24,000 nt of DNA from an uncultured Pseudomonadales bacterium (GTDB taxonomy: Bacteria; Patescibacteriota; Microgenomatia; UBA1400; PJMF01). The stretch is taken from assembly GCA_964452285.1 (NCBI GenBank), contig CAYVKW010000006.1, positions 7,960 to 31,959 on the forward strand, given 5' to 3'. A model generated the notes under the pieces. It worked only from the letters and a program-made list of their open reading frames with translations. It made no database searches and had not been told where the DNA came from. A program made the position numbers and the translations under genes. Below, one piece after another: positions 1 through 22,557 of the stretch (positions within the stretch are counted from its first letter, which is position 1; each line of letters starts with the position of its first letter).

Positions 1-1239
1 GTCACTTGTTATCGCAAGCTCAAAAGTGGATATTTTCTACCTTTGGGTTATGGTCCCAGACTATGGCAATACTTGAAAGAGCGAGGAGATACTTTGGAGT
101 TGGACGATAAAAGAATAGAAAAACCGATTGCCAAAATTATCAGTAAAATAGAATTAAAAGAAAATCAAGCCGAAGCTTTGGCAAAAATCTTGAAAAGTAG
201 TCGATCGATTTTGGAAGCGAAACCGGGGTTTGGGAAAACTATGCTCGGGTTGCAAACACTGTGCGAACGTGGACAAAAAACGCTAATTGTGGTGCATACC
301 CGAGCATTATTGGGACAATGGCAAAAGAGAATTCAAGATTTTTGCCAATTGGAAGAAGATGATTTGGGTATTATTGGTGAAGGGAAATGGAAAATAGGGG
401 CAAAAGTCACCATTGCTTCTTATCAGACACTTTTGAGCCGAGGAACAAAGACACTTAAAAATGAATTTGGCTTATTAATTGTAGATGAATGTCATCACGT
501 CCCCGCCAATACTTTTGCCAAAGTCGTCAAGGGCTTTGCGGCTAAATATTGTCTTGGTCTGACGGCGACACCTTTTCGCAAAGACAAATTAGACAAACTG
601 ATGACTTTTTATATTGGAAAAATTATTCCAACGGAGAGTTTAACAACGAGTGAAGAAAATAGTTTATTGCCAAAAGCAGCGGTACAAACTAAATTAATAG
701 TGAAAAGAACCGCACTCTGGATTGAAGAAGCAGAATTAAAAGAATTTACAGAACTAGGAACGATTTTGAGCAATGACCAAGAACGAATTAAAATGATTGT
801 CGATGATATTGCTGAAGAAATTAAAAAGGGCAGTAAAATTATTGTGCTGTCAGAAAGAGTAGGACATTGCGAAGCCTTACTGGCAGCGATAAAGAAAAAG
901 TCAAAAAAAGTGAAAGCAGTGCTCGTCACGGGACAAATGAAAAAAAATGAACGAGAAGTACTTTTTGAAGAAATTAAGAAAGACAAATATCAATTAATTG
1001 TGGCCACGGGTGGAGTAATTGGAGAAGGCTTTGATTGGCCGGCACTTAATTGCTTATTTCTCACTTTTCCGTTTTCTTGGCGAGGAAAATTGATTCAATA
1101 CGTCGGGCGAGTGCAAAGACTTTATCCCGGCAAAACGGAAGCAAGAGTTTATGATTACGTGGACGAGCAAATGTCAATTTTCCTCGCCATGTTTCGCAAA
1201 AGACGAACAGCTTATAGAGAGCTGGGAATTGAGTGCTAA
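1..1239 (+). CDS. SF2 DEAD/DEAH-box helicase (ResIII + Helicase_C layout, UvsW/XPB-like), 5' partial
   Basis: Frame 1 is open from nt 1 (VTCYRKLKSGYFLPLGYG...), so the TTG at 43 in the ORF track is not the real start and the gene begins upstream of the window. Helicase motifs are visible: motif I KPGFGKT, motif II VDECHH, motif III LTATP, motif VI QYVGRVQR. Stop is TAA at 1237-1239. Confidence 0.85.
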   Translation, partial: VTCYRKLKSGYFLPLGYGPRLWQYLKERGDTLELDDKRIEKPIAKIISKIELKENQAEALAKILKSSRSILEAKPGFGKTMLGLQTLCERGQKTLIVVHTRALLGQWQKRIQDFCQLEEDDLGIIGEGKWKIGAKVTIASYQTLLSRGTKTLKNEFGLLIVDECHHVPANTFAKVVKGFAAKYCLGLTATPFRKDKLDKLMTFYIGKIIPTESLTTSEENSLLPKAAVQTKLIVKRTALWIEEAELKEFTELGTILSNDQERIKMIVDDIAEEIKKGSKIIVLSERVGHCEALLAAIKKKSKKVKAVLVTGQMKKNEREVLFEEIKKDKYQLIVATGGVIGEGFDWPALNCLFLTFPFSWRGKLIQYVGRVQRLYPGKTEARVYDYVDEQMSIFLAMFRKRRTAYRELGIEC

Positions 1240-1317
1240 AAAAGCCGACAAATAAACCGATTTTTTTGATGAGTTGATGAAGTAAAGAAAGAAAAAAATG
1301 CTTTTATACTAAAAAGC

Positions 1318-2880
1318 ATGATAGATTTTGTCAAAAACTTAAAAATTCTTGGTGGACGAAAAAGTGAAAACTGGAATAAAAGCTGTGACTTCGCTGAGGG
1401 GTCTTATCAACCAGAAAAATTTTCTCCAAATTTAAAAAGTTTAATCAAAGAGTGGGAGGCGATAACAAAAAATTGGAATGTGGTGGAAATATTGACGCCG
1501 ACCAAGGAATCTTTAGTCAAAGAAAAAGAGAAGGCTTGGTCGGCGTGGTCAAAAAATCAAGTTTATCAACCACTGTTTGAATATGGTTGGCTCAAAAAAA
1601 ATCCCATTGATATCAAAGCGACTAAAAAACAATTGCAAACAATTTTGGAAAAAACAAAAGTACTCAAAGTCAAAGATGAAATCAATCGGACAGGTAAAAC
1701 TGCTTTTTACCAATGCGTCAAGGATAGTCTAGAAACATTGAATTTAATCGAAGGCTTAGAGAAAAAAAATGAAAAATTAATTAAGGAAGCTTTGAATAAA
1801 AAATATGCTGCCAACGATGATTATTTGTGGTTACTGGCAAACAGTTATTATCAGCAAGCAGTAGAAAAATCCTTAGATAATAGACACGTGGAAAACACTG
1901 AGTTGCAAGAAATGGAGAGACAATTGCTAAGAGAAAAAGTTTTTAATGCTGGCGACTTAGCAATGGCATTTATTTGGTTATTGCAAAAGTATAATTTTTT
2001 GGGCACGGAAAATAAACGAGGCTATCAAGTCATAATTAGCGATGAAGCAACTGCAGTTGATGTGCGCGATAAAGCTCAGAAGCCGCTAACAATTATTATC
2101 CCAGCAACAAAAACTCTCAGCGGCGAAAAATTACTTTGTCTAATGTATCGTCAAATAGAAAGTAAAGTCCGGCAAAGTATGAATGCGCGAGCATTAACTG
2201 AAGATGAATTTGAACTAAAAACAGATGATGAAACTTGGTATGAAGGTTGTGCTTTGCGGCTGGAAAATAAATTTTTTTATCATCATTTATTTGGTGAACA
2301 CGAAGAAGAAATCGTCAAAATGTCTTTCTATGTGTTAGCGGTCAATTTAGCGGAAAATGGCCAAAGTTTTTGGGAAATTTGGCAAGAAATCACAGAAATG
2401 TATGTGCATGTATTCACTGGTATAGAAGTGAACCGAAATTTGACTAGAACTGATTTGACGCAGATGCCGGCGGAAATAATAGAAGCGGCAAAAGAGAAAG
2501 CGTGGACGGTGACTTACCGGATTATGCGTGGACATACGAATATGGAAAACAAACTAGCTTATGCCAACCGCAAAGATTTGGCTTATTTGCGAAGCTACTT
2601 GGTCGATGAAATTCTCAACAATATGGAGCTGGAAAATGTTGACGAAAAGCTGTTAATTAAAACCAATGCATTGCCGATGACGAATGAAGCAACTTTGCAA
2701 ATAGACAATTTAGCTTATCCATTTCTAAATGGAACGCGCGATTATTGTTTTGATGTGTTGCTACCGCAAGTAAGAGGAGAAAAAACTAAAAGAGCCATAA
2801 TTTGTGATTGTAGAAACAAAATTCGAGCAATAAAGATATTACGCACAGAAAGAAAAAATAATAATAGAAAGGATGCAATT
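1318..2880 (+). other. N-terminal region resembling the DUF1704 / TIGR02421 'QEGLA-motif' (MATCAP carboxypeptidase) family, with HExxH replaced by RQxxK
   Basis: Pattern GYQVIISDEATAVDVRD..LTIIIPATKTLSGEKLLCLMY-RQIESKVRQSMNAR-(17 aa)-WYEGCALRLE ... SFWEIWQEI ... YRIMRGH..NRKDLAYLRSY. I recognise this from memory as the DUF1704 core (xHEIxxHxxRxxNG...QEGLAxxxE...FTKDxxYLRG). It has not been checked by HMM. Confidence 0.45.
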
Positions 2881-4257
2881 ATGCATTTAGTTCACAATTT
2901 AATGGACGATCCCTACGGAAGTCGTGAAAGCGAAAAAGCCGCAGCGCAATTTGTGATTCCGCAAAAAGAAAGTCAGGGTCGTGACGTTTATAATTTTCTC
3001 AAAGACGAATTGCTTTTGGACGGTAATGCCAAACAAAACCTCACCACTTTTTGCACTACTTGGTTGGAACCAGAAATTCACAAATTAATGAATGATTCAA
3101 TTACCAAAAACTTAGTGGATAAAGATGAATATCCACAAAGTGCGGCTATTGAATTACGTTGTGTCCACATGTTGGCTGATTTATGGCATTCGCCAGAAGC
3201 AAAAACGACTTTGGGGACTTCAACAATTGGTAGTAGCGAGGCGGCAGAGTTGGGCGGTTTGGCAATGAAATGGCGATGGCGGAAAATGCGCGAAGCGGCC
3301 GGAAAAGATACTAGTAAACCAAATCTAGTGTGCGGACCGGTGCAAGTCTGCTGGTATAAATTCGCGCGTTATTTTGACGTGGAAATCAGAAGCGTACCAC
3401 TGACAGAAGAACGTTTGGAAATGACAGCGGAATCAATGATGCCTTACATTGATGAAAATACAATTGGCGTAGTCCCGACTTTGGGTATCACATACACTTG
3501 TGCTTATGAAAATGTGAAGGACATCAGCGATGCTTTAGACAGGATCCAAACGGAAAAAGGTTGGGACATTCCGATTCACGTTGATGCGGCCTCAGGTGGT
3601 TTTATTGCCCCATTTTTGCAGCCAGATTTACTATGGGATTTTCGCTTGCCGAGAGTGAAATCAATTAATACTTCTGGTCATAAATTTGGCTTATCACCTT
3701 TAGGCGTGGGGTGGGTGGTTTGGCGAGAAACAAAAGACTTACCAGAAGATTTAATTTTCTATGTCAATTACTTAGGTGGCAATGAAGCAACTTTCAATCT
3801 TAATTTCTCAAAACCAGCTGGGCAAGTGATTGCGCAATATTATAACTTCTTGCGACTAGGTAAAGATGGCTACACCAAAATTCAGAGTGAGTGCGCCAAA
3901 GTAGCGAAGTATGTCGCAGAAGGAGTGAAGAAGCTGGGCATCTTTGATATTCTCTATGACGGTGAGGGTGGCCTACCAGCAAGTTGCTGGTCATTGAAAA
4001 AAGATGCGCAAGTGCCATTTAATTTGTTTGACATCACTGATAGATTACGTAATCGCGGTTGGTTGCTACCGTCATACAGTATGCCACCGAATGCGCAAAA
4101 AGTAGTGATTCAAAGAATATTGTGCCGACACGGATTTAGTATGGACATGGCAGATTTATTCTTGGCTGACTTTGCTAGAACAGTAGAATTTTTGCGCCAG
4201 CGAGGAGACTGCGGTAGTTTAAGTGAAACGGAAGCAGCGAGCTTCAAACACACTTAA
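1318..4257 (+). CDS. gadB: 979-aa ORF: DUF1704/MATCAP-like N-terminal region (degenerate metal site) in frame with a complete PLP-dependent glutamate decarboxylase
   Basis: Single uninterrupted ORF. The C-terminal ~455 aa match E. coli GadA/GadB end to end as remembered: DELLLDGNAKQNLTTFCTTW, IGSSEA, PNLVCGPVQVCWYKFARYFDVE, HVDAASGGF, PLP-lysine motif SGHKFG, and an identical C-terminal SFKHT. The N-terminal ~520 aa are not found in canonical GADs. The fusion status is uncertain (see findings). Confidence 0.85.
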   Translation: MIDFVKNLKILGGRKSENWNKSCDFAEGSYQPEKFSPNLKSLIKEWEAITKNWNVVEILTPTKESLVKEKEKAWSAWSKNQVYQPLFEYGWLKKNPIDIKATKKQLQTILEKTKVLKVKDEINRTGKTAFYQCVKDSLETLNLIEGLEKKNEKLIKEALNKKYAANDDYLWLLANSYYQQAVEKSLDNRHVENTELQEMERQLLREKVFNAGDLAMAFIWLLQKYNFLGTENKRGYQVIISDEATAVDVRDKAQKPLTIIIPATKTLSGEKLLCLMYRQIESKVRQSMNARALTEDEFELKTDDETWYEGCALRLENKFFYHHLFGEHEEEIVKMSFYVLAVNLAENGQSFWEIWQEITEMYVHVFTGIEVNRNLTRTDLTQMPAEIIEAAKEKAWTVTYRIMRGHTNMENKLAYANRKDLAYLRSYLVDEILNNMELENVDEKLLIKTNALPMTNEATLQIDNLAYPFLNGTRDYCFDVLLPQVRGEKTKRAIICDCRNKIRAIKILRTERKNNNRKDAIMHLVHNLMDDPYGSRESEKAAAQFVIPQKESQGRDVYNFLKDELLLDGNAKQNLTTFCTTWLEPEIHKLMNDSITKNLVDKDEYPQSAAIELRCVHMLADLWHSPEAKTTLGTSTIGSSEAAELGGLAMKWRWRKMREAAGKDTSKPNLVCGPVQVCWYKFARYFDVEIRSVPLTEERLEMTAESMMPYIDENTIGVVPTLGITYTCAYENVKDISDALDRIQTEKGWDIPIHVDAASGGFIAPFLQPDLLWDFRLPRVKSINTSGHKFGLSPLGVGWVVWRETKDLPEDLIFYVNYLGGNEATFNLNFSKPAGQVIAQYYNFLRLGKDGYTKIQSECAKVAKYVAEGVKKLGIFDILYDGEGGLPASCWSLKKDAQVPFNLFDITDRLRNRGWLLPSYSMPPNAQKVVIQRILCRHGFSMDMADLFLADFARTVEFLRQRGDCGSLSETEAASFKHT
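2881..4257 (+). other. gadB: Glutamate decarboxylase module with its own Shine-Dalgarno and ATG (possible independent translation unit)
   Basis: AAAGGA at 2868-2873 lies 7 nt before the in-frame ATG at 2881. Met-2881 aligns within ~4 residues of the natural N-terminus of E. coli GadB. Confidence 0.85.
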
Positions 4258-4297
4258 GAAAAACTAAAAACGGAGGTGAAAGCGAAGTGGAAGCAAG

Positions 4298-4328
4298 TTG
4301 GCGACCAAATGAAAAATTTGGTCGCCAA
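4298..4328 (+). terminator. Perfect 13-bp stem / 5-nt loop hairpin between gad and gadC; no U-tract (attenuator or mRNA-stabilising element rather than a classical terminator)
   Basis: TTGGCGACCAAAT (4298-4310), loop gaaaa, ATTTGGTCGCCAA (4316-4328). The hairpin is followed by caacaataaaaat, which is A-rich rather than T-rich. Confidence 0.4.
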
Positions 4329-4364
4329 CAACAATAAAAATAAATTAAAAAAGAAGGAAGGAAA

Positions 4365-5855
4365 ATGCAAACAGGGAAAAAGAAGTTTTTGACAACGATG
4401 CAAATTGCATTGATGACGGCCGCGGCAATTGTGAGTTTACGCGGTTTGCCGATGCTGGCCGCAGAAGAAATGACAATGTTTTTTTACATCATTTACGCGA
4501 CAGTTTTATTTTTGGTGCCAGCGGGATTGGTGGCAGCGGAGTTAGGTAGTGCTTTTGCGACTGTAGGTGGCGGAGTTTACACCTGGGTGAAAGAAGCGTT
4601 TGGGGAAAAATCCGGATTCTTAGCTATATTTTTACAATGGATTCAAAATGTAGTCTGGTATCCGGTAGTACTAGGTTTTGCAGCGGCAGCAGTAGCTTAT
4701 TTAATCGGGATGCCAAAATTGGCAGACAATAATATTTATACCGGAATTTTTATTATTGTGTTTTATTGGTTAGCGACGGCAGTAGCTTTTAAAGGGAGCG
4801 GTTTCCTAGCAAAAGTGACGAGTCAAGCCTTTTTATTGGGCACAGTTTTACCTGGCGTCGCCATGGTGGTAATGGCGGGAGTATGGCTCGCAAATCGACA
4901 ACCAATCGGTTTCCAAAACTTATCTTCGGCTGACACGCAAATAGTGGAAGCGAGTAAAGTAGCAACGATGCATGCTCATCCGCGCTGGTTTCCGTCTCTG
5001 ACTAATTTGGGTAATTTAGCTTTTCTAGCGGCAATTTTATTGCTTTTTGCTGGAGTAGAAGTACAAGCAGTGCATTCAGTGGATATGGAAAATCCGCAGA
5101 AGCAATATCCACGAGCAATTTTAATGGCAGCATTAATTTCACTAATCATTTTTGCTATTGGTAGTCTAGCAGTGGCAATTATTCTCCCCTACCCCGACAT
5201 TCAATTGGAGTCAGGTTTATTTGACGCTTTTGCCCTAGCGTTTAAAACTTATAAAATTCCTTGGATGACTAATGTGATGGCGGGTTTGGCGGCGTTTGGA
5301 GCAATGGGCGGCGTCTTGTCTTGGATTGCTGGGCCAAGCCGCGGTTTATTGTGGACAGCGCGCGACGGTCAATTGCCGAAATCGTGGACAAAAGTCAATA
5401 AGAATAATGTCCAAACAACGATTTTATTGTGGCAAGGAGTGTTCGTGACCGCTTTGGCTCTAATTTATTTCATTTTCAAAAATGTGAATGTGGCTTTCTT
5501 TTTACTCAGCGCGCTCACGGCCGGACTTTACATTATTATGTATTTGCAAATGTATGCAGCGGCGATCAAACTACGCTACAGCCAACCGAATTTGCTCAGA
5601 CCATATAAAATTCCTGGCGGGAAAAGTGGAATTTGGACGGTGGCAGGAATTGGTTTCTTAGCAGCATTATTTTCTTTAGTGGTAGCATTCGTGCCACCGA
5701 CACAATTGGTCATCGGTAATAAGACAACTTATGTCTTAATGGTGGCGGCGGGTACAATTGTGTTTGTGATATTGCCGTTTATTATTAATTATGCGGTGAA
5801 AAAAGGGAAAAAGCAGGTGGTAACTGGAGAAATGCAAGCGCAAGAACAAAAATAA
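4365..5855 (+). CDS. gadC: APC-family glutamate/gamma-aminobutyrate antiporter (GadC-like)
   Basis: Polytopic membrane protein with blocks matching E. coli GadC as remembered: WIAGPSRGLLWTARDGQLP..VNKNNVQ, YKIPGGKSG...AFVPP. SD GAAGGAAGGA precedes the ATG. The gene lies immediately downstream of gad. Confidence 0.9.
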   Translation: MQTGKKKFLTTMQIALMTAAAIVSLRGLPMLAAEEMTMFFYIIYATVLFLVPAGLVAAELGSAFATVGGGVYTWVKEAFGEKSGFLAIFLQWIQNVVWYPVVLGFAAAAVAYLIGMPKLADNNIYTGIFIIVFYWLATAVAFKGSGFLAKVTSQAFLLGTVLPGVAMVVMAGVWLANRQPIGFQNLSSADTQIVEASKVATMHAHPRWFPSLTNLGNLAFLAAILLLFAGVEVQAVHSVDMENPQKQYPRAILMAALISLIIFAIGSLAVAIILPYPDIQLESGLFDAFALAFKTYKIPWMTNVMAGLAAFGAMGGVLSWIAGPSRGLLWTARDGQLPKSWTKVNKNNVQTTILLWQGVFVTALALIYFIFKNVNVAFFLLSALTAGLYIIMYLQMYAAAIKLRYSQPNLLRPYKIPGGKSGIWTVAGIGFLAALFSLVVAFVPPTQLVIGNKTTYVLMVAAGTIVFVILPFIINYAVKKGKKQVVTGEMQAQEQK

Positions 5856-5923
5856 GATTGCGCGGGAAAAGAATAAAGAGTAAAATTGAAGCATTAAAAC
5901 TAGGAGTGATAAAGGAGGTTTTA

Positions 5924-6565
5924 ATGCACGAAAATAATTGGCGGCGACGCGAACAAGATGATTTAATTCATCAAGTAGCGACGCCGCTTACTAATGCTTT
6001 ATTATTTTTGGAAAGGGGGATAGAAAAAGAATCGACAAAAGTAAAAAAGGAACTAAAATTAGCTCATGAAGAATTGCAAAAGGCGATAAAATTATTGCAA
6101 AATAGAGAGGCGAAAAATTTGGAGAAAACAAATTTTTCGCCAATAAAAACCCTAGAAAACATTCTTACTCATTACCAAAAACCATATCAAGTAAATTGCC
6201 AACTGCAAACCGACCAAAAAAATTACTCTTTTTACGGACACGAGGAAGCATTCGCAGAAATAGTCATACATTTGCTCAACAATGCCGCCGAAGCTTATCA
6301 TGACCATAGTTGCGCTCGTCCAATTCAGCTGACATTAACCGAAGCTTGTAATGGGATGAATCTAATCATCGGCGATCATGGACGAGGCATGAATTGGTGG
6401 CAAAAACTAATAGCAACTTATCCCAAAATATCTTTTAAAAAAGTCAAAAGTGGGTTGGGTTTACCAAAAGTAAAAAGGTTGCTCAAAGAAGAATTTGATG
6501 GTGAGTTAAAAATCATAAGCAAAGTCTGTGCGGGCACACTGATTATCGCCTATTTTCCTTTTTAA
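5924..6565 (+). CDS. Small soluble histidine kinase (HisKA-like H-box + HATPase_c), with no sensor domain or TM segment
   Basis: H-box IHQVATPLTNALLFLE, N-box HLLNNAAEAY, G1 GDHGRGM, G2 SGLGLPKV. I place the start at ATG 5924 because AAAGGAGG (5911-5918) precedes it. The ORF-track TTG at 5858 begins 2 nt after the gadC stop and lacks an SD. Confidence 0.75.
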   Translation: MHENNWRRREQDDLIHQVATPLTNALLFLERGIEKESTKVKKELKLAHEELQKAIKLLQNREAKNLEKTNFSPIKTLENILTHYQKPYQVNCQLQTDQKNYSFYGHEEAFAEIVIHLLNNAAEAYHDHSCARPIQLTLTEACNGMNLIIGDHGRGMNWWQKLIATYPKISFKKVKSGLGLPKVKRLLKEEFDGELKIISKVCAGTLIIAYFPF

Positions 6566-6569
6566 TTTA

Positions 6570-6578
6570 TGCTATAAT
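6570..6578 (+). promoter_or_regulatory. Extended -10 promoter element (TGcTATAAT) upstream of tRNA-Thr
   Basis: TGCTATAAT at 6570-6578, 25 nt before tRNA position 1. No convincing -35 element, which is consistent with extended -10 usage. Confidence 0.35.
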
Positions 6579-6603
6579 TACACTTCTTAACAAGAATTAT
6601 TTT

Positions 6604-6676
6604 GCCTGGTTAGCTCAGTTGGCAGAGCGTCGCATTCGTAACGCGAAGGTCGTGGGTCCGATTCCCACACTAGGCT
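6604..6676 (+). tRNA. tRNA-Thr (anticodon CGU), CCA not encoded
   Basis: Folded manually into a cloverleaf. Acceptor GCCTGGT/ACTAGGC (one G-U pair). D-arm GCTC-AGTTGGCA-GAGC. Anticodon arm TCGCA-TTCGTAA-CGCGA, anticodon CGT. Variable loop AGGTC. T-arm GTGGG-TCCGATT-CCCAC. Discriminator T, followed by CAT. Confidence 0.9.
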
Positions 6677-6689
6677 CATTTGACGGTAA

Positions 6690-7225
6690 TTGAAAAAAAG
6701 CGAAGAGAATTTTGTAGTGCATAAATGGTTATATAAGACACCCAATGAATTTGATGATATACTAATGAGAAGTGACGGAGAATATCTCACGGGTTTGGGA
6801 TTCATAAAGACAAATAGTAATGTTAAAAGCACGAAAAATGAAGAAGAAGAATTGGTGATTTTCAAAGAAACTAGCAACTGGTTAGATATTTACTTTGGCG
6901 GTAAAAATCCAAATTTCAAACCACGATATAAAATCGCAAATTCAACCGCATTTAGAAGTAGAGTAATTGAAATAATGACTGCTATTCCTTTCGGTCAGAC
7001 TCTAAGATACAAAGATATTGCAGCAGCAATTGTAAAAAGTAAAGGGTTGAAGAAAATGTCTAGTCAAGCCGTAGGCGGAGCGGTGGGATGGAATCCGATT
7101 GGAATTATTATTCCTTGTCATCGGGTCATAGGTTCGAATGATAGCTTAACTGGATACAGCGGAGGAATAAAAATAAAGCAGCATTGCTGCTGCATGAGCA
7201 AAAAAATAAAAAAATGGAAAAATGA
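6690..7225 (+). pseudogene. ogt: O6-alkylguanine-DNA (methylated-DNA--protein-cysteine) methyltransferase, frameshifted near the 3' end at an A5 run
   Basis: Active site IPCHRVIG and helix-turn-helix region PFGQTLRYKDIAAAI. After YSGGIK the annotated frame reads IKQHCCCMSKK. The +2 frame reads NKAALLLHEQKNKKMEK and stops at TGA 7223-7225, which is the canonical Ogt C-terminus. One extra A in the run at 7169-7173 restores it. The start (TTG 6690 or GTG 6717) is uncertain. Confidence 0.8.
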
Positions 7226-7229
7226 TATA

Positions 7230-8327
7230 ATGGCACCAATTAAAACAAGTGCTAAGAAGAAAACAAAAATGAGAAAACATTATTTAGATAACATTCGGTG
7301 GCTGACAATAATTTTGGTTTTGATTTACCATGTTTTTTATCTTTTCAATAGCGTTGGTGTTTTGGGCGGAATGGGAGGTTTCGCGCCCAAGCAAAGTCAA
7401 GATGTTTTTCTTTATATAGTTTATCCTTGGTTTATGGTGTTATTTTTTGTGGTAGCAGGTATGAGTAGTCGTTATGCTTTAGCGACTCGCACCAACAAAC
7501 AATTTCTGAAAGAAAGAACGATGAAGTTATTAGTGCCGTCGACTTTAGGACTATTGGTTTATCAGTGGATTGGCGGATATTTCAATTTGCTGATTGGCGG
7601 TGCCTGGCAAACAATATCCGCTTTTTTGAAATATCCGCTTATGGTTCTAACTGGCACTGGGCCACTGTGGTTTATTCAAATGCTATGGTTATTTTCAATA
7701 ATGCTGATAATAATTAAAAGTGTAGATAAAAAAGATAAATTATATAATTGGGGTGGAAAATGTAATTTGTGGATTTTATTATTACTTTTTTTACCAGTTT
7801 GGGGCGCGGCACAAATTCTAAATGTGCCAGTAATTACAACTTATCGTTTTGGCATTTATTTATTCACTTTTTTAATCGGTTATTTTGTTTTTTCTCATGA
7901 TGAAGTAATGGAGAAACTTGAAAAAGTGTGGTTGCCGCTATTACTAGCAGCTGGTATTTTGGGCGTAATTTTTGTTGGATTTTTCTTTGGCAAAAATTAT
8001 ACTGAAGGAGAATGTTTGCAAAGTGTTCTCACTAATTTATATTTATGGATTACTATTTTGGCGGTACTTGGCGGTGGAAAAAAGTGGTTAAATCAAAATT
8101 CGGCTTTTACCCAATATATGACAAAAGCGAGCTTTGGAATTTATATCGTACATTATCCGATTACTTTGGCTATTTGTTATGGACTGAAAAATTATGTTTT
8201 ATGGCCAACGCCAATGATCTATGTGACAGCAATAGTGATGACGTTATTTTTGTCTGTGATGACAAATGAAGTTATTCGGCGGATACCGATAATAAATTTC
8301 TTAGTGCTGGGCGTCAAAAAAACTTAG
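7230..8327 (+). CDS. Acyltransferase family 3 (OpgC/OatA-like) integral membrane O-acyltransferase
   Basis: The N-terminus HYLDNIRWLTIILVLIYHVFY is typical of acyltransferase_3 and is followed by ~10 hydrophobic segments. ATG 7230 lies 4 nt after the restored ogt stop; ATG 7269 is an alternative start. The ORF track fuses this gene to ogt only because of the ogt frameshift. Confidence 0.8.
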   Translation: MAPIKTSAKKKTKMRKHYLDNIRWLTIILVLIYHVFYLFNSVGVLGGMGGFAPKQSQDVFLYIVYPWFMVLFFVVAGMSSRYALATRTNKQFLKERTMKLLVPSTLGLLVYQWIGGYFNLLIGGAWQTISAFLKYPLMVLTGTGPLWFIQMLWLFSIMLIIIKSVDKKDKLYNWGGKCNLWILLLLFLPVWGAAQILNVPVITTYRFGIYLFTFLIGYFVFSHDEVMEKLEKVWLPLLLAAGILGVIFVGFFFGKNYTEGECLQSVLTNLYLWITILAVLGGGKKWLNQNSAFTQYMTKASFGIYIVHYPITLAICYGLKNYVLWPTPMIYVTAIVMTLFLSVMTNEVIRRIPIINFLVLGVKKT

Positions 8328-9132: not shown

Positions 9133-9564
9133 TTACAAAATAGTCAGAAAGGTACCGCCGACGATAAGTAAAACACCGATAATATTTTGCCAGGAAACTT
9201 TTTCATGTAGTAAAAAAACTGATAAAATCATAGCGATAACCAAGCTCAATTTATCTAGAGCAAGAACTTTGGTGACGCCGTCAGTGAGTTGCAGAGCGCG
9301 ATAAAAAAGTAGCCAGGAAGCGCCGGTGGCGAAACCGGAAAGAATGAGAAAGATCCAGTTACGCGGAGTCAAAGTAAGAGTCTGATTTTGCAAACCAAGA
9401 ACAAGCACGATGATCCAGGATAAAAATAAAACGACAGTCGTTCTGATGGCGGTGGCAAGATTGGAATTGACGCCGGCAATACCAATCTTGGCGAGAATAG
9501 AGGTGAGCGCGGCCATGACGGCAGAACCGAGAGCGTAAAATAGCCATAAAGGAATTTTGGTCAT
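9133..9564 (-). CDS. Single-EamA-domain DMT-superfamily small membrane transporter
   Basis: 143 aa with ~5 TM segments. The N-terminus LWLFYALGSAVMAALTSILAKIGIAGVNSNLATAIRT is characteristic of EamA repeats. Confidence 0.75.
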   Translation of the reverse strand: MTKIPLWLFYALGSAVMAALTSILAKIGIAGVNSNLATAIRTTVVLFLSWIIVLVLGLQNQTLTLTPRNWIFLILSGFATGASWLLFYRALQLTDGVTKVLALDKLSLVIAMILSVFLLHEKVSWQNIIGVLLIVGGTFLTIL

Positions 9565-9743: not shown

Positions 9744-11039
9744 ATGAAAGTAGCTTTAATTGGAACTGGTTTTGTAGGAGTAACAGCGGCGGTGGTTTAT
9801 GCTTCTTTTGGCAATCAAGTCATTGGCTTAGATATTGATGAAAAGAAAATCGATAAATTGAACAAAGGGAAAGTGCCTTTTTACGAGCCGAAGTTAACCG
9901 AGCTACTAGAATCTGGTCTAGAAAGTAAAAAATTAAAGTTTACCACTTCTTATAAAGAAGCAATTGAAGACGCAGACGTAGTGATTGTGGCAGTGGGAAC
10001 GCCATCGGCGGCGGATGGCGCCATCGACCTCAGTTATATTGCTAAAAGCGTGGCGCAGGCTGCGCCTTTTCTCAAAGATGGCGCTGTCTTAGCTATTAAG
10101 TCAACCGTTTTGCCAGGAACATTGGCACAAGTGAAAAAGATTGTCAATAATCTCACAGATAAAAAAGTTTATTTTGCGGCTTTACCAGAGTTTTTGAAAG
10201 AAGGAACAGCGGTGGACGACACTTTATATCCAGACCGGATTGTAATTGGAACGGAGCACAAAGCCGCTTTCAAAATTTTGGAAGAGCTGCATGCGCCGTT
10301 TAAAGCGCCAATCTTATCAGTGAAACCGGAGTCGGCGCAACTAGCAAAATATGCGAGTAACAATTATCTAGCACTAAGAATTGTTTATGCCAATGTGTTG
10401 GCAGAAATTTGTGAAAATAGTGAAGCCGATATCAAAGAAGTGATTGAAGCAATGGGTTACGAAAAAAGAATTGGCAATCATTATTGGTATCCAGGTTTGG
10501 GCTACGGCGGTTCTTGTTTCCCTAAAGACGTGAAAGCTTTGGCACATTTTTGCCAAGATAATCAGCTGCAAAGCAATCTCTTTGCCGTAATTAATGAACT
10601 TAATAATAAGAGACCAAAACAGGTTTTGGATAAAATTGGCGAAGTAATTAATGGTTTTCAAGATAAAAAAGTGGCGGTCTTAGGTTTGTCTTTCAAACCA
10701 AATACAGATGATCAAAGAGAGGCGCCAGCTCTGACAGTGATTCCGACATTATTGGCGGCAGGCGCAAAAGTGGTAGCTTATGATCCAATGGTGAAACAGA
10801 TTGCCAATGACGAGCTGGCGCGAAATAAAAACTATAAACAAGTAGAAACAATCGCAGTGGCGGTCAAAGAAGCAGATTTAATTATCCCATTAATTGAATG
10901 GTCGCAAATTGTGGGCTTTGATTTTGCGACTACCAAAGAGAAGAAAGAACAATATTTCTTTGATGCACGGGGACAATTTGAAATGGATAAAATGCAAGAT
11001 TTGGGTTATATTTATTTAGGAATTGGACAGAAATTTTGA
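9744..11039 (+). CDS. ugd: UDP-glucose 6-dehydrogenase
   Basis: N-terminal Rossmann motif IGTGFVG. Catalytic-cysteine signature GYGGSCFPKDV. C-terminal UDP-binding block LGLSFKPNTDDQREAP. Confidence 0.9.
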   Translation: MKVALIGTGFVGVTAAVVYASFGNQVIGLDIDEKKIDKLNKGKVPFYEPKLTELLESGLESKKLKFTTSYKEAIEDADVVIVAVGTPSAADGAIDLSYIAKSVAQAAPFLKDGAVLAIKSTVLPGTLAQVKKIVNNLTDKKVYFAALPEFLKEGTAVDDTLYPDRIVIGTEHKAAFKILEELHAPFKAPILSVKPESAQLAKYASNNYLALRIVYANVLAEICENSEADIKEVIEAMGYEKRIGNHYWYPGLGYGGSCFPKDVKALAHFCQDNQLQSNLFAVINELNNKRPKQVLDKIGEVINGFQDKKVAVLGLSFKPNTDDQREAPALTVIPTLLAAGAKVVAYDPMVKQIANDELARNKNYKQVETIAVAVKEADLIIPLIEWSQIVGFDFATTKEKKEQYFFDARGQFEMDKMQDLGYIYLGIGQKF

Positions 11040-11053
11040 ATAAATTTCTGTCC
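11025..11053 (+). terminator. Perfect 12-bp stem / 5-nt loop hairpin enclosing the ugd stop codon; no U-tract
   Basis: GGACAGAAATTT (11025-11036), loop tgaat (contains TGA 11037-11039), AAATTTCTGTCC (11042-11053). The hairpin is followed by gcaaaaataaagg. Confidence 0.4.
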
Positions 11054-11073
11054 GCAAAAATAAAGGTGAGAAA

Positions 11074-12009
11074 ATGACAAAAAAAGTTTTAATCACTGGC
11101 GGAACGGGTTTCGTTGGCGGTCATTTATTGAGATATTTGCAAAAAATGGCGCCGAATGAAGAATATCATTTAACAAGTTTGCATGCACATAAAGTAGCTG
11201 GAGCATTTGTACATGAAATCGATCTCACGAGTAAAGAGGAAGTAGAAAAATTAATCGCGGAAATCAAGCCGAATGAGATTTATCATTTAGCGGCGATCGC
11301 GAGTGTGCCAGCAAGTTTCCAAGACCCAGAAGGAGTAATTAAAAACAATTTTCAATTAACGCTGAATGTATTGGAAGCGATGCGGCTGCTAGTGCCAAAA
11401 AGTAAAATGCTGATGGTAAGTAGTGCTGATATTTATCAAGTGGAAAACAATGGACGGAAAATTAATGAAGAAACTTTGGTGGCGCCAGCTAATCCTTATT
11501 CAGCGAGTAAAGCGGCGCAAGATTTATTAGCTGGCGCCTATGCAAAAAGCTTTGGCTTAAATATCGTCAGAGTTAGACCTTTTAATCATATTGGAGTGGG
11601 TCAAGGTTTAGGTTTCGTGGTGCCTGATTTTGTTTCACAGATCGCAAAGGTGGAAAAAGAAAAAGATGCCAAAATTAGAATTGGCAACCTAGAGGCGGAG
11701 CGTGATTTTACAGCAGTAGATGATATTGTGGCTGGCTACGCTCTACTAATGAAAAAAGGAGGGGGCGGTGAGATTTATAATTTGGGACAAGGTGAAACGA
11801 TCACGATTCGAGAATTACTAGATCGGCTGCTCAAGCAAGCAAAACGACCGATTGAAATAGAAGTGGATCCGACACGTTTGCGACCAAGTGAAAGACCGTA
11901 TATTTGCGCAGATGTGAGCAAGGCACAAGCTTTGGGCTGGCAAGCAAAAATCCCTCTTGAGACAACTTTGGCAGAAATCATGGACGATTGGCGAGAGAAG
12001 ATGATATAA
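11074..12009 (+). CDS. rmd: Extended SDR NAD(P)-dependent sugar-nucleotide reductase, GDP-4-keto-6-deoxy-D-mannose reductase (Rmd)-like
   Basis: TGGTGFVGGHL and YSASK (YxxxK). The Gmd/Rmd-type block RPFNHIGVGQ is present. The gene lies directly upstream of gmd. The specific Rmd assignment, as opposed to another 4-reductase or epimerase, is inferred. Confidence 0.65.
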   Translation: MTKKVLITGGTGFVGGHLLRYLQKMAPNEEYHLTSLHAHKVAGAFVHEIDLTSKEEVEKLIAEIKPNEIYHLAAIASVPASFQDPEGVIKNNFQLTLNVLEAMRLLVPKSKMLMVSSADIYQVENNGRKINEETLVAPANPYSASKAAQDLLAGAYAKSFGLNIVRVRPFNHIGVGQGLGFVVPDFVSQIAKVEKEKDAKIRIGNLEAERDFTAVDDIVAGYALLMKKGGGGEIYNLGQGETITIRELLDRLLKQAKRPIEIEVDPTRLRPSERPYICADVSKAQALGWQAKIPLETTLAEIMDDWREKMI

Positions 12010-12053
12010 TAGAGACTTAAAATGTAAGTTAGACAGAGACAGAAAGTATTTTT

Positions 12054-13046
12054 ATGGCAAAAAAAGCTTTAATTACCGGAGTAACAGGTCAAGACGGTTC
12101 TTACTTGGCAGATTTTCTTTTGGAAAAAGGTTATGAAGTGTATGGTTTAATTCGTCGCACTTCCACGCCAATTTTCGAGAGAATCGAAAATTTGCTCGAC
12201 AATGAACATTTTCATCTAGTATCAGGAGACCTAGCTGATAGCGGCTCGCTAATGCAATTGATGAAAGAAATAGAGCCAGACGAAATTTACAATTTAGCCG
12301 CTCAGTCTTTTGTGAAAGCGAGTTGGGATCAACCGATTCTAACTGGTGAATACACGGCTCTGGGAGTGACGAGAATACTAGAAGCAATGCGACTGTTTGC
12401 GCCAAAAGCCAGGTTTTATCAAGCATCGTCATCAGAGATGTTTGGGAAAGTTTTAGAAGTGCCTCAATCGGAAAAAACACCTTTCTATCCGCGTTCTCCT
12501 TATGGAGTAGCAAAAGCTTATGGGCACTTTATTACGGTGAACTATCGCGAATCTTATAATTTATTCGCTTGTTCTGGTATTCTTTTTAATCACGAATCGC
12601 CACGAAGAGGTCTAGAGTTTGTAACTCGGAAAATTGCGCACCAAGTAGCAGAATTAAAATTGGGTTTAAGAGATAAAGTGGAGTTAGGTAATTTGGACGC
12701 GAAAAGAGATTGGGGTTATGCCAAAGATTACGTGCGAGCGATGTGGTTAATGTTGCAGCAAGAAACTCCAGATGATTATGTGGTCGCCACAGGCGAAACA
12801 CACAGTGTGGGCGAATTCTTACAAAAAGCTTTGGCGCATATTGGAGTTAATGATTGGGAGGCACATTTCAAACATAATCGGGCTTATGATCGGCCAGCAG
12901 AAGTTGATTTATTGATTGGTAATGCAGAAAAAGCCAAGACTGTTTTAAAGTGGCAGCCAAGCATTACTTTTGATGAATTAGTGGCATTAATGGTGGATTC
13001 AGAAATAGCGCTTTTGGAAGGTAAGGCAAAAATTTACGATTTCTAA
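12054..13046 (+). CDS. gmd: GDP-mannose 4,6-dehydratase
   Basis: Near-colinear with E. coli Gmd as remembered: [71 protein letters not shown]. Confidence 0.93.
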
Positions 13047-13047
13047 A

Positions 13048-14232
13048 ATGAAAAAAGCTGTCATTATTATTCCAACTTATAATGAGAAAGAGAATGTAGC
13101 GAAAATCGTGCCGCAAATTTTTGCCGCGGTTAAAAACATTAAAAATTATCAAGTGGAAATTTTAATTGTTGATGATACTTCGCCTGATAAAACTTATATG
13201 GTGGTAAAAAAAATGCAGGTAGACTGGCCACATTTACATTTACTGGTCAATCCGGAAAAAGCAGGTTTAGGTGGAGCTTATCTTAAAGGCATGAAAGAGG
13301 CCTTCGGCAAACTGAAGGCAGACTATGTCTTTGAATTTGACGCTGACGGTTCACATGATCCAAAAAAATTACCAGAATTTTTTGCAAAATTGGATGAAGG
13401 CTATGATTTTGTAATTGGCGGCCGTTATCGTCATGGTGGCTCAGTCGATCCTGACTGGCCGCTGCTGAGAAAATTTTATAGCATTGTTGGCAACTTTGTG
13501 ATTATGGTGGTTTTAACCGATTTCCGGATTGGTGACTGGACCAGCGGCTACAGAGCGATTAGTAAAAAGGTCTATCAAGCAGTGATCGGAGAAATGACAG
13601 GTGAAAGATTTAGTGGTTACACTTGGCAAATTGGTTTTTTGCACAAAGCCGTGAGGAAAAACTTTCGTTTTACAGAAGTACCGATTCATTTCCAAGATCG
13701 AAAAATTGGAGAATCAAAATTAGGTGCAGAATATATAAAAAATACTTTGCTTTATATTTTTAAAGCTAGATTTGATGAGATCGTCAATCACAGAATTTTT
13801 AAGTTTGCAGTCACGGGTGCAATTGGAACATTAGTACAATTGCTTAGTTATGGATTGATGCAAACAACAATTTTGCCGCCAAATAATTTATGGCAAATTC
13901 AAACAGCTAATTTTATTTCCATTGAATTGGCAATTATTTCTAATTTTACTATTAATGGTTTTTGGACTTTTTCAGATCGCAAACTAAAAAGTAAAGAAGT
14001 GCTGCCAAAATTTTTACAATTTAATTTAGCTTCGGCTGGGTCAGTGACGGTGCAGATGTTGCTAATGTGGGCGCTAGTGCGTTTGTTTGGCAGTGAAGTT
14101 TTATTTAAGCTGTTTGGAATTTTTGATGTGGGCAAACAAACGCTTTATCAACTGCTCGGAATTATTTTAGCAATGTGTTTCAATTACTTTTTTTATAACC
14201 GTTTTATTTGGAAAAATCAAAAGACAAAATAG
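13048..14232 (+). CDS. GT2 polyprenyl-phosphate mannose/hexose synthase (Dpm1/Ppm1-like) fused to a C-terminal GtrA-like 4-TM domain
   Basis: IIIPTYNEKENV, VDDTSPD and FDADGSHDP are GT2 DxD-type motifs. The C-terminal ~130 aa (FKFAVTGAIGTLVQLLSY...NYFFYNRFIW) are GtrA-like. The ATG lies 1 nt after the gmd stop. Confidence 0.85.
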   Translation: MKKAVIIIPTYNEKENVAKIVPQIFAAVKNIKNYQVEILIVDDTSPDKTYMVVKKMQVDWPHLHLLVNPEKAGLGGAYLKGMKEAFGKLKADYVFEFDADGSHDPKKLPEFFAKLDEGYDFVIGGRYRHGGSVDPDWPLLRKFYSIVGNFVIMVVLTDFRIGDWTSGYRAISKKVYQAVIGEMTGERFSGYTWQIGFLHKAVRKNFRFTEVPIHFQDRKIGESKLGAEYIKNTLLYIFKARFDEIVNHRIFKFAVTGAIGTLVQLLSYGLMQTTILPPNNLWQIQTANFISIELAIISNFTINGFWTFSDRKLKSKEVLPKFLQFNLASAGSVTVQMLLMWALVRLFGSEVLFKLFGIFDVGKQTLYQLLGIILAMCFNYFFYNRFIWKNQKTK

Positions 14233-14240
14233 AAACAACG

Positions 14241-15824
14241 ATGACAAAACTTAAAAGTTTTTTTGCCACCATAAAAAAAGAATTTTGGCGCCAGCCAGTG
14301 TTGTATGCTTTTTTGGGAGTATTGATAGCAGCTGGCGCTTGGTTAAGATTGTACAAAATCAGTGACACGCTCATGTTTCAAGGCGATCAGGGACGCGATG
14401 CGATTGTAGTAGCAAGAATGTTTAGAGAATGGGATCCGGCTTTCATCGGTCCAGTGACGAGCATCGGTAATATGTATTTGGGGCCATTCTATTATTACTT
14501 TATGCTGCCATGGCTATGGATTTCTTATCCAAATCCAGTAGGACCAGCAATTGGAGTAGCTTTAGCGAATGTGGTGGCAATTATTTTAACTTATGTTTTA
14601 GGCAAAAAAATGGTGGGAGAACGAGCGGCCTTATGGGCAAGTGTTTTATTTACTTTCTCGCAAGTAGCAATTTTTTATGGTCGTTTTTCTTGGAATCCGA
14701 ACTTAAGCGCTTTAGTGAGTTTACTAACCATTTTTTTTATTCATCAAGCTTTGACGGAAAAAACAAAAAATTGGTTGTGGGTGGGCTTATGTGCTGGGAT
14801 ATTAATTCAACTGCATTATGTTAATTTGGTAGTGGTGGCAGTGGCGGGAATTTTTTGGTTATGGCAATGGTGGAAAAAGGGGCGAGAAAAAAAATGGCGG
14901 CAAAAAAACCATTTTTGGCAAATGAGCGTGGGAGCGGTGGTAATTTTTTTTCTTACTACTACTCCGTTAGTACTTTTTGATTGGAAGTATGACTGGCGCA
15001 ATATAGAGGCAGGAGTGGGAATTTTTACTAAAGAAGAAAGCTTTACCAGCAATCAAGAAGTGGAGACAGCGCAAAGCGCCCGCGCTTTGCGCCAACAATT
15101 AAAAAACAGAACTAGACAAGTTTTGGGTGACTTAGCAATGCCAGAAGTACCAAAGAACGAGGCCTTTTTTGTGTTTACTTTTTTGGTCCTAATCACTTTT
15201 TTGTATCTCACTTACAAAAAGAGAGAGACAAAAGAAGCGCTTGGCTATGTAATTCTAGCCGTCAGTGTCGTGATGACAATTGTAATTACGGGTTTATATC
15301 GTCATAATTTTTACGATCACTATCTACTATTTATATTGCCAGTGATATTTTTGATTTATGGTTGTTTACTAAGCCAATTACGATGCTTAAAACAAAAATG
15401 GCTGAAATGGGCAATCACAATTTTGCTGATGATTTTTTATCTGACTGCCAATTACAGAAGTGGTTTTTACGTGGGTAATAATATGCCAGCAAAAATCAAT
15501 GAAATTACAGATTTTATTATTACCCAATTACCAAAGCAAACACCCTTTGCCTTTTCTTTTGTCAATGACAATAAAGATTCCTTAGGTGAACATTACCGTT
15601 ATTTCTTGGAAACTAAAACCGATCAATTAGTTGATTTGAGCGAGATTGCGAAAGCAGAAGTGATGTTTATTGTGGATGAAACTAATCAGGCAAATATCTA
15701 TGACTTATCTAGTTTTGATGTGGTAGTCTTTCGTGATGACGCGACAGTAAGCGCTATCCCTTATAATGATGTGACAATTTATAAATTGGAAAAGAAGACA
15801 GAACAGGCGGCCAATGATGAATAA
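14241..15824 (+). CDS. GT-C fold membrane glycosyltransferase (GT39/ArnT/PMT_2-like)
   Basis: Polytopic N-terminal half with a first-loop acidic motif FQGDQGRDAIVVARM, followed by a soluble C-terminal domain. I place the start at ATG 14241. The ORF-track start at 14208 is a TTG that overlaps the upstream gene. Confidence 0.75.
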   Translation: MTKLKSFFATIKKEFWRQPVLYAFLGVLIAAGAWLRLYKISDTLMFQGDQGRDAIVVARMFREWDPAFIGPVTSIGNMYLGPFYYYFMLPWLWISYPNPVGPAIGVALANVVAIILTYVLGKKMVGERAALWASVLFTFSQVAIFYGRFSWNPNLSALVSLLTIFFIHQALTEKTKNWLWVGLCAGILIQLHYVNLVVVAVAGIFWLWQWWKKGREKKWRQKNHFWQMSVGAVVIFFLTTTPLVLFDWKYDWRNIEAGVGIFTKEESFTSNQEVETAQSARALRQQLKNRTRQVLGDLAMPEVPKNEAFFVFTFLVLITFLYLTYKKRETKEALGYVILAVSVVMTIVITGLYRHNFYDHYLLFILPVIFLIYGCLLSQLRCLKQKWLKWAITILLMIFYLTANYRSGFYVGNNMPAKINEITDFIITQLPKQTPFAFSFVNDNKDSLGEHYRYFLETKTDQLVDLSEIAKAEVMFIVDETNQANIYDLSSFDVVVFRDDATVSAIPYNDVTIYKLEKKTEQAANDE

Positions 15825-21969: not shown

Positions 21970-22557
21970 TTATTGCGCTTGAGTTTGAGTAGCGTGCGGA
22001 ATTAAACCCATAGTACTGAACGGCCAATAAGAAACATAAGCTCGGCCAATAATAGATTTTTTGGTAATGGGACCCCAATAGCGGGAGTCAGCAGAATTAG
22101 CGCGATTGTCGCCGCTGACAAAATACTGATCTTGAGTCAAAGTAATTTCGCGTTCGTCGAGAGTATAAGGACCGGGATTAGTCGTAACCGTGGGTGCTAA
22201 ATATTCGTTTTCGTCTAAGGCGACACCATTGACGTAGAACTTACCATCGGACACTTTGACGGTGTCGCCTGGCAAACCAATAATCCGTTTAATATAGTCA
22301 CAGCCGCTACCGATACAAGCTGAAGACGGAGCTTTGAAGACAATAATTTCTCCACGTTTAGGTTCACCAAAACGATAAGAAAGTTTTTCGGTCAGCAGAT
22401 ATTCGCCAGTTTGCAAAGTGGGATCCATAGAGTGACCATTAACTTGATGAGGTTGAGCCACAAAAATATAAATGACGAAAAAAATTGCCAAAGAAACAAC
22501 AATCGTTTCCACGAAATCCAAAACGCTGTTTACAATTTTATCTTTAGTAATAGTCAT
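21970..22557 (-). CDS. lepB: Signal peptidase I
   Basis: N-terminal TM anchor, catalytic Ser box GHSMDPTL, Lys box YIKRIIGLPGD, box E GDNRANSADSRYWG. Confidence 0.9.
   Translation of the reverse strand: MTITKDKIVNSVLDFVETIVVSLAIFFVIYIFVAQPHQVNGHSMDPTLQTGEYLLTEKLSYRFGEPKRGEIIVFKAPSSACIGSGCDYIKRIIGLPGDTVKVSDGKFYVNGVALDENEYLAPTVTTNPGPYTLDEREITLTQDQYFVSGDNRANSADSRYWGPITKKSIIGRAYVSYWPFSTMGLIPHATQTQAQ

Follow-up and report, generated by a model that had tools for sequence, protein, structure and literature searches.

A glutamate decarboxylase fused to a predicted MATCAP-like pseudo-peptidase domain in uncultivated bacteria

A stretch of 24,000 nucleotides (nt) of DNA from an uncultured bacterium (GenBank assembly GCA_964452285.1, contig CAYVKW010000006.1, positions 7,960 to 31,959 of the forward strand; hereafter referred to as the window) was found to encode, in a single open reading frame (ORF), a GadB-type glutamate decarboxylase (GAD) preceded by a domain with the predicted fold of the MATCAP/DUF1704 peptidases and a degenerate catalytic motif. 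This architecture joins a known enzyme to a known fold, a combination so far undescribed in the literature searched. The interpretation considered moderately probable is that of a maintained fusion with a non-catalytic, binding or regulatory N-terminal domain, whose locus yields two products, arose by insertion of a GAD-antiporter cassette and includes a histidine kinase in the same circuit.

An initial annotation of the window had described one uninterrupted ORF of 979 codons, of which residues ~529-979 would represent a complete GadB-type decarboxylase with the motif of the pyridoxal 5'-phosphate (PLP)-binding lysine and a GadB-like C-terminus. Both the ORF and the assignment of its C-terminal half held up. 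In a search with TIGR01788, this half scored 622 bits (cut-off 380.4), with residues 533-959 covering profile positions 3-430 of 431, and the Pfam domain Pyridoxal_deC matched residues 564-894. From Met522 onward, the protein aligned with residues 12-466 of Escherichia coli GadB (1pmm), up to the last residue (E 5.5e-170), and both the PLP-lysine motif and the C-terminal pentapeptide coincided with those of GadB (Table 1). All sequence tests assigned the decarboxylase to the GadB family. Its terminal SFKHT is predicted to be an auto-inhibitory tail ending in His-Thr, with the same gating role as in GadB.

The N-terminal region, when analyzed alone, scored 15.7 bits with PF08014 (MATCAP, formerly DUF1704), below the gathering cut-off of 27, and gave no TIGR02421 match at E<=1 in an NCBIfam search. 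A word-indexed protein search with the N-terminal half alone also returned no match, which reflected a prefilter failure, as the same database does contain the protein itself. An exhaustive phmmer search of 1.84 billion representatives with the N-terminal domain as query identified 174 relatives, 130 of them at E<=1e-10 (best E 4.7e-78, 36% identity). Nearly all were stand-alone proteins of ~480-510 amino acids (aa) that aligned over residues 30-495. Matches to PF08014 at E<=0.01 were observed in 65 of 70 relatives, with P0005 (39.9 bits), P0035 (41.4 bits) and P0006 (30.6 bits) above the Pfam cut-off, and 14 of 16 aligned relatives matched the TIGR02421 'QEGLA motif protein' family at E<=0.1 (best 3.9e-8). 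Genome records assign most members of this family to the candidate phyla radiation (Peribacteria/Peregrinibacteria, Roizmanbacteria, Levyibacteriota and Saccharibacteria).

A profile of the family matched human MATCAP (KIAA0895L, 7z5g) at E 3e-7, through the signatures YNPQFEY and R..RG.TD...KD..YL.G; comparison of a single active family member with the 7z5g sequence gave no match. When supplied with a 70-sequence alignment, AlphaFold2 yielded a model of the N-terminal domain with a predicted local distance difference test score (pLDDT) of 89.5 and a predicted template-modelling score (pTM) of 0.87; the model made without an alignment was useless (pLDDT 41.8). The top Foldseek match of the former in the PDB was human apo MATCAP (7z5g_B; E 5.8e-5, probability 1.00, target-normalised TM 0.64), followed by other gluzincins, namely M32 carboxypeptidases and ACE. 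With MATCAP1/TMCP1 (KIAA0895L), PF08014 and TIGR02421, the window domain shares the gluzincin fold, the E-G element that supplies the third ligand, and two signatures, YNPxFxY and RxxRG..D..N...KD..YL.G. In contrast to MATCAP and also to its own active bacterial relatives, it lacks HExxxH; it further differs from MATCAP in falling below the Pfam cut-off, in being bacterial and fused to a metabolic enzyme, and in an additional helical segment, ~80 residues long and located between YxPxFxY and the motif helix.

These results place the N-terminal domain in a remote branch of the MATCAP/DUF1704/QEGLA family; its membership of PF08014 is transitive only, through its relatives. The N-terminal strings quoted in the initial annotation were all recovered (RQIESK, YEGCA, TYRIMRGH at residues 399-406 and RKDLAYLRSY at 418-427). 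Its proposal of a DUF1704/TIGR02421 identity was upheld by the relatives and by the structural search, with MATCAP as top match, but not by the window domain itself, which remained below the PF08014 cut-off and without a TIGR02421 match. As it scores below the Pfam cut-off and lacks HExxxH, the domain was filed as a MATCAP-like pseudo-peptidase.

Equivalent fusions were detected in other lineages. When the full-length protein served as query in the word-indexed protein search, homologues of 973 and 971 aa were retrieved, with 74% and 68% identity over 98% of the length; the former was present in four independent Logan assemblies (L001-L004) and the latter in an ENA assembly (L005). A scan of genome collections with a 16-sequence alignment added a fusion of 968 aa in an NCBI metagenome-assembled genome (MAG; L009), which brought the total to four complete fusions (979, 973, 971 and 968 aa), each a single ORF. 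The N-terminal halves of the three other fusions were 61%, 50% and 51% identical to that of the window protein and their decarboxylases 88%, 87% and 88%. A fifth lineage was represented by a 1.6-kb contig, in which all 36 codons upstream of the GAD methionine were open in the same frame, through the linker. The fusion loci have in common the gene order Cys-tRNA synthetase, ResIII helicase, fusion, permease, kinase. Because the same ORF occurs in at least six independent assemblies from different projects, with the same gene order, it was confirmed at the sequence level as a genuine gene fusion rather than an assembly accident. The covalent fusion considered in the initial annotation was likewise substantiated, by single ORFs in four Logan, one ENA and one NCBI MAG assemblies. 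The hosts form a small clade of uncultivated bacteria that are probably related to the candidate phyla radiation. No description of a GAD of this architecture, or of a bacterial DUF1704 protein in this context, was found in the literature searched; the initial annotation, too, was aware of no such GAD.

Public records of the fusion would, at first sight, fit an artefact, in which an error of sequencing, assembly or frame has merged two separate genes, or in which the N-terminal region is a decaying pseudogene. At L009 (JAUNST010000003.1, 3060-5966), where 968 codons are open, the NCBI pipeline annotated just a 458-aa 'glutamate decarboxylase' (P0154) and left the N-terminal 510 codons (~1.5 kb) without annotation. 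Similarly, no Pfam domain was seen in the N-terminal half, and precomputed Pfam annotations for three database copies of the fusion comprise PF00282 alone. This explanation has a negligible probability in view of the at least six independent assemblies with the same ORF, at 48-61% N-terminal domain identity, and of the confident AlphaFold2 model. Moreover, each of 2000 shuffled versions of the first 1560 nt of the ORF contained at least one stop codon, and ratios of nonsynonymous to synonymous substitution (dN/dS) across the four lineages were well below 1, at 0.07-0.21 for the N-terminal domain versus 0.02-0.04 for GAD, with saturated synonymous sites (proportion of synonymous differences, pS, 0.66-0.75). 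An alternative genetic code as source of the long ORF was ruled out, as table 11 already uses all three stops.

The consensus of the N-terminal family, LL.L..HEIEGHARQS.NG...DDETLYEGLA, consists of an extended HExxxH motif and a downstream E-G glutamate. The same arrangement is found in MATCAP/TMCP, in which an E281A substitution abolishes activity (PMC10499314). To count motifs, the four fusion domains and 150 listed relatives were aligned, 147 of which were informative at the motif. HExxxH was intact in 137 of these and degenerate in ten, including the four fusions, which read RQIESK (window), RQIEGK (L001) and HQIEGL (L005 and L009). The catalytic Glu was replaced by Gln in all four fusions, and the second His by Lys or Leu. 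The positions of H278, E279 and H283 were 100% conserved among the 144 members treated as active. The initial annotation had correctly identified the R, Q and K substitutions at these positions, but had taken the family motif for HExxH instead of HExxxH.

Forty positions were conserved in at least 85% of the active members, and 32 of these were kept in all four fusions, among them E309, the EG.A glutamate already noted in the initial annotation, and the cluster R401/R404/G405/N411/K419/D420/Y423. Lost in all four were E279, H283, G256 and G426, and in some H278, Y308 and G310. No intact HExxxH was found elsewhere in the aligned N-terminal domain. In view of its homology to active enzymes, its replaced catalytic residues and a dN/dS well below 1, the N-terminal domain is, in line with the catalytically dead fold proposed initially, most consistent with a pseudoenzyme under purifying selection, predicted to be inactive, rather than with a decaying gene or an active peptidase. 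The Glu-to-Gln change is identical to that in the laboratory variant MATCAP1 E281Q, which is inactive and still binds its substrate, microtubules (PMC13269789); it differs from that variant in being natural and clade-fixed and in the additional loss of one or both zinc histidines.

Several active family members showed other architectures: P0035 (760 aa) and P0058 (747 aa) have N-terminal extensions of ~300 aa, and P0053 (815 aa) has a C-terminal Peptidase_C39-like domain (22 bits). The gene for the active HExxxH member P0005, on a JGI contig, is followed by three ATP-grasp ligase genes (one Ddl-like, two RimK/GSH-S-like) and a pyruvate kinase gene. This gene order resembles the pairing of a ligase with a peptidase, as in the case of tubulin tyrosine ligase and MATCAP; no such ligase neighborhood was present in the other loci examined.

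The retention of E309, E281 and most of the surrounding scaffold, together with that of the first His in two lineages (HQIEGL), could alternatively indicate that the N-terminal domain is an active hydrolase with non-canonical metal or catalytic residues, which frees C-terminal glutamate from peptides and passes it straight on to the fused GAD. The location of one active relative beside RimK-, glutathione-synthetase- and Ddl-type ATP-grasp ligases would provide a hint of glutamyl-peptide chemistry. Such an activity is very unlikely, however, with Gln in place of the general-base Glu in four fusions and Lys or Leu in place of the second His. The three motif positions are conserved without exception in the members treated as active, and MATCAP with either of the corresponding substitutions, E281A or E281Q, is inactive (PMC10499314, PMC13269789).

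The pseudo-peptidase domain and GAD are connected by a fast-evolving linker (residues 496-528), with a dN/dS of 0.66-1.1 in pairs of the window versus other fusions and 15% invariant third positions. Its indels were multiples of three only, and no stop occurred in any lineage. The only runs in the linker that were invariant among the four fusions were the Shine-Dalgarno (SD)-like AGAAAGG at 2866-2872 and TATGCAT at 2880-2886, which includes the internal ATG. The former is spelled by the minority codons AGA and AAG; in these genes, 13-20% of the codons for Lys are AAG, and Arg is mostly encoded by CGN. Comparable purine-rich sites precede other genes of the window. The closest unfused orthologue, P0156 at locus L040 (80% identical), has AGAAAGG 10 nt upstream of its start and begins at the equivalent position; at this locus GAD is followed by the same permease, and neither a peptidase-like gene nor a kinase gene is present. 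Variants of the site precede other GAD starts (AGAAGGG in L042 and AGGAAGG in L041).

As judged from these comparisons, GAD was formerly encoded by a separate gene, whose ribosome-binding site and start survive as the internal site; preservation of this site against saturated divergence argues that the start is still in use. Besides the 979-aa fusion, a plain GAD of 458 aa is probably made, as predicted from the conserved SD sequence and ATG. According to the initial annotation, the fusion would bury the GadB N-terminus and thereby imply a different mode of activation. That view is weakened by the conserved ribosome-binding site and ATG (2866-2883), which suggest that a GAD with a free N-terminus is formed as well; the N-terminus of this short form would be ~5 residues shorter than the bundle-forming segment of E. 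coli GadB. Isoform pairs that originate from internal initiation are known in bacteria for ClpB (95/80 kDa), CheA (CheA-L/CheA-S) and IF2 (alpha/beta). As in these examples, an in-frame internal SD sequence and ATG would yield a short form without the N-terminal accessory domain and, as in the ClpB hexamer, both forms could co-assemble in one oligomer. The present case, in which the two products are a prediction, differs in that the internal start appears to be the retained start of a once separate gene.

At L041 (GCA_964369765.1, 7001-8596), a 531-aa GAD with 77% identity carries an N-terminal extension of 72 codons with an Asn/Ser-rich run. An internal Met, equivalent to the starts of other GADs, is preceded by AGGAAGG at a distance of 11 nt; ahead of the long start there is a TATACTTAA box similar to the one in the fusions. 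Interpretation of this extension as a remnant of the fused domain was not supported by local alignments, whose scores equalled those of shuffled controls, and is unproven.

The product of the gene directly downstream of the fusion is predicted to be a GadC-like antiporter. Its best NCBIfam matches were the Gln/GABA (gamma-aminobutyrate) and Glu/GABA antiporter GadC families, with 438.6 bits (cut-off 650) and 431.4 bits (cut-off 640); as these scores are below the equivalog cut-offs, its substrate is unassignable from sequence. A permease gene was located downstream of GAD in all relatives. In neighbor-joining trees, the four fusion domains were monophyletic and formed a clade with the stand-alone protein P0008 in 100 of 100 bootstraps. 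The motif of P0008 is also degenerate (REIENK). Its gene is located on a 5-kb MAG contig (L006, GCA_964466205.1; 3-1650 (-) and 1769-3310 (+)), divergently adjacent to a gene for a 222-aa histidine kinase that is 45% identical to the kinase encoded downstream of the antiporter in the window (E 2e-64) and is co-directional with a Na+/H+ exchanger gene. L006 contains neither GAD nor permease, and ribosomal protein genes are found on the other side.

Among the family loci, homologues of GAD, the permease and the kinase were encountered at the fusion loci and L006 only. No kinase homologues were found near ~30 loci of the active family, and clustering of ORFs within 5 kb of ~30 active stand-alone loci did not reveal any neighbor common beyond close relatives. 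A JGI metagenome scan yielded no further members of the pseudo-clade. Sharing of an operon by the kinase and a proton- or pH-related transporter in both arrangements is suggestive, with the L006 type represented by a single contig.

In the interpretation favored here, the N-terminal domain would no longer cut peptides and would serve as a binding or regulatory appendage of the decarboxylase, a role also suggested in the initial annotation, with C-terminal Glu or acidic peptides as possible ligands. The retained substrate groove of a peptidase that recognizes C-termini would bind an acidic or glutamate-type ligand or the tail of a partner protein, the most plausible target because the family recognizes protein C-termini and because an active relative is encoded beside three ATP-grasp ligases. 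The 979-aa long form would be accompanied by the 458-aa GAD from the internal start and, since GadB-type enzymes are hexamers, both forms could co-assemble, which would set the number of regulatory domains per particle. The locus could have evolved from a pre-existing pair of a pseudo-peptidase and a sensor-less kinase, as in L006, by insertion of a GAD-antiporter cassette, as found unfused in L040, between the two genes, followed by loss of the stop codon of the pseudo-peptidase gene. This insertion history would make the kinase the prior partner of the pseudo-peptidase, and the kinase is for that reason probably part of the same pH- or glutamate-responsive circuit.

Several observations weigh against this interpretation. 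The unfused L040 enzyme implies that the N-terminal domain is dispensable for catalysis, and this domain evolves 4-5 times faster than GAD. Its sequence-profile alignment to 7z5g consists of two short segments only, which makes the correspondence of its putative binding residues to the substrate groove of MATCAP tentative. Outside the fusions, linkage to the kinase is represented by one 5-kb contig (L006), and the neighbor-joining grouping of these fast-evolving pseudoenzymes could be inflated by long-branch attraction. Selection for the basic residues R and K in the linker could, in part, account for the conservation of the internal SD sequence.

Some of the same observations would also be expected if the fusion were a tolerated read-through, in which the pseudo-peptidase works alone, for example with the kinase, and GAD arises essentially by initiation at its internal start, without any regulatory effect of the fusion on decarboxylation. 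Retention of the ancestral SD sequence and ATG of GAD, an almost neutral evolution of the linker, the occurrence of the sister protein P0008 as a stand-alone protein with the same kinase neighbor and no GAD, and the unfused GAD-permease pair in L040 are all consistent with this possibility. However, a neutral junction is expected to regain a stop codon, whereas in at least four lineages the frame has remained open through a linker that is rich in AT and rapidly diverging. Synonymous divergence (dS) among these lineages is saturated, and indels occur in multiples of three only. In addition, no unfused adjacent arrangement was found among the relatives. Tolerated read-through, the main alternative, is consequently regarded as unlikely, although it deserves consideration. 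A more doubtful proposal is that the dead pocket captures a specific tail, either the SFKHT of GAD itself or the tail of the antiporter or kinase. In that case, a ligand or partner rather than pH alone would control opening of the enzyme, the mixture of isoforms would tune the response, and the kinase would read or set its state.

The maintained fusion with a regulatory N-terminal domain, as favored above, can be compared with known GAD systems. In E. coli, the gad genes are under GadE/X/W-type regulation. The window locus resembles the E. coli GadB/GadA-GadC system in the end-to-end alignment of GAD, its PLP-lysine motif and SFKHT, and in the GadC-like gene that directly follows. It differs in the ~520 extra N-terminal residues, which are not known from any characterized GAD, in an antiporter that scores below the GadC equivalog cut-offs, and in the presence of a histidine kinase gene in the operon in place of GadE/X/W-type regulation. 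Plant GAD carries a C-terminal calmodulin-binding domain as a non-catalytic regulatory module on a GadB-like hexamer. Plant GAD1 (3hbx) is a clear homologue of the window GAD and also has an appended non-catalytic module; unlike the plant module, the appendage in the window is located at the N-terminus and is of peptidase origin, and it is ten times larger.

Table 1. Positions of the fused gene, its sequence elements and the two genes downstream of it in the window. Residue numbers refer to the 979-aa protein unless stated otherwise.
Feature	Position	Strand	Remarks
-10-like box, TATACT	1305..1310	+	7 nt upstream of the ATG of the long ORF
Fused ORF (pseudo-peptidase, linker, GAD)	1318..4257	+	ATG start; 979 aa plus stop; uninterrupted
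MATCAP/DUF1704-like gluzincin fold, catalytically degenerate (predicted)	1405..2802	+	Residues ~30-495; phmmer, AlphaFold2, Foldseek
Degenerate catalytic motif, RQIESK	2149..2166	+	R278-K283; column of the family HExxxH
YEGCA, third-ligand E309 retained	2239..2253	+	Residues 308-312; invariant E of the YEGLA/QEGLA element
Retained family signature, TYRIMRGH...RKDLAYLRSY	2512..2598	+	R401, R404, G405, N411, K419, D420, Y423; segment aligning to human MATCAP
Fast-evolving linker	2803..2880	+	Residues 496-521; open in frame in all lineages
SD-like sequence, AGAAAGG	2866..2872	+	Inside the ORF, 8 nt before the internal ATG (2881)
GadB-type glutamate decarboxylase	2881..4257	+	Residues 529-979 canonical; probable 458-aa short form from the internal ATG (Met522)
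PLP-lysine motif, SGHKFG	3673..3690	+	Residues 786-791; same hexapeptide in 1pmm GadB
C-terminus, SFKHT	4240..4254	+	Residues 975-979; aligns to GadB 462-466 (GadB His465)
GadC-like amino-acid antiporter (predicted)	4365..5855	+	AA_permease_2 at 6e-56
Small sensor-less histidine kinase	5858..6565	+	H-box plus HATPase_c only

The TATACT box in front of the long ORF has counterparts in L001, L005 and L009, in which TATACT(TAA) is also found close upstream of the fusion ATG. Its position suggests that the transcript of the long ORF is leaderless or has a very short leader. Counts from a scan of 1100-6800 for sigma-70 promoters and terminators were no higher than in shuffled sequences, and an Rfam scan gave a tRNA at 6604-6676 as sole match, with no riboswitch near the operon. 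Elsewhere in the window, TATACT or TATAAT boxes 7-13 nt before the start, without an SD sequence, were observed for the genes at 9133-9564 (-), 19356-20993 (-), 21970-22557 (-) and 22605-23495 (-), as for the box at 1305-1310. Clear purine-rich SD sites precede the genes at 4365, 11074 and 21075. To judge from these upstream sequences, genes with no leader or a short one seem to coexist in this genome with genes led by an SD sequence.

The intergenic region between GAD and the permease contains a perfect 13-bp hairpin without a T-run (4297-4329; GTTGGCGACCAAA-TGAAAAA-TTTGGTCGCCAAC). A different, GC-rich hairpin occupies the same place in L001 (11141-11284), and the GAD-permease spacers of L005 and L009 are ~30 nt long and have no hairpin. 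The hairpin may be an intercistronic element that affects expression or stability. GC content was 0.41-0.43 over positions 3001-6000 of the window, which encompass GAD and the permease, versus 0.35-0.38 in the region of the N-terminal domain and in neighboring genes. This step is compatible with acquisition of a GAD-antiporter cassette from elsewhere, or simply with stronger conservation.

Downstream of the kinase gene, a tRNA-Thr (CGT) gene is located at 6604-6677 (+), overlapping a spurious minus-strand ORF (6587-6877). It is followed by a second apparent fusion ORF at 6690-8327 (+; 545 aa, TTG start), which combines an Ogt/MGMT DNA-methyltransferase domain with PCHRV (residues ~86-165) and an Acyl_transf_3 membrane acyltransferase (197-525). 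As this ORF starts directly after the tRNA, its true start may be located further downstream; in L001, Ogt is encoded on the opposite strand by a gene of its own (174 aa). A co-directional glycan cluster at 9744-19343 (+) encodes a UDP-glucose dehydrogenase, two NAD-dependent epimerase/dehydratases including a GDP-mannose 4,6-dehydratase, a family 2 glycosyltransferase (GT2) fused to GtrA, two PMT-like glycosyltransferases, a further GT2 and a 421-aa ORF without a Pfam match.

The fusion provides an example of a hidden architecture, in which Pfam misses a domain and NCBI annotation leaves 1.5 kb of conserved coding sequence unannotated. GAD/GadC is a textbook bacterial acid-resistance system whose regulation by N- and C-terminal segments is well studied, and the fusion would represent a new and directly testable regulatory design for it. 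In addition, it connects bacterial MATCAP/DUF1704 proteins, an uncharacterized branch of their family, with glutamate metabolism and a histidine kinase, which suggests what these proteins recognize. If capture of a specific tail by the dead pocket were true, it would for the first time open the bacterial members of the MATCAP/DUF1704 family to functional interpretation, either as enzymes that act on glutamate-type C-termini or as readers of such ends.

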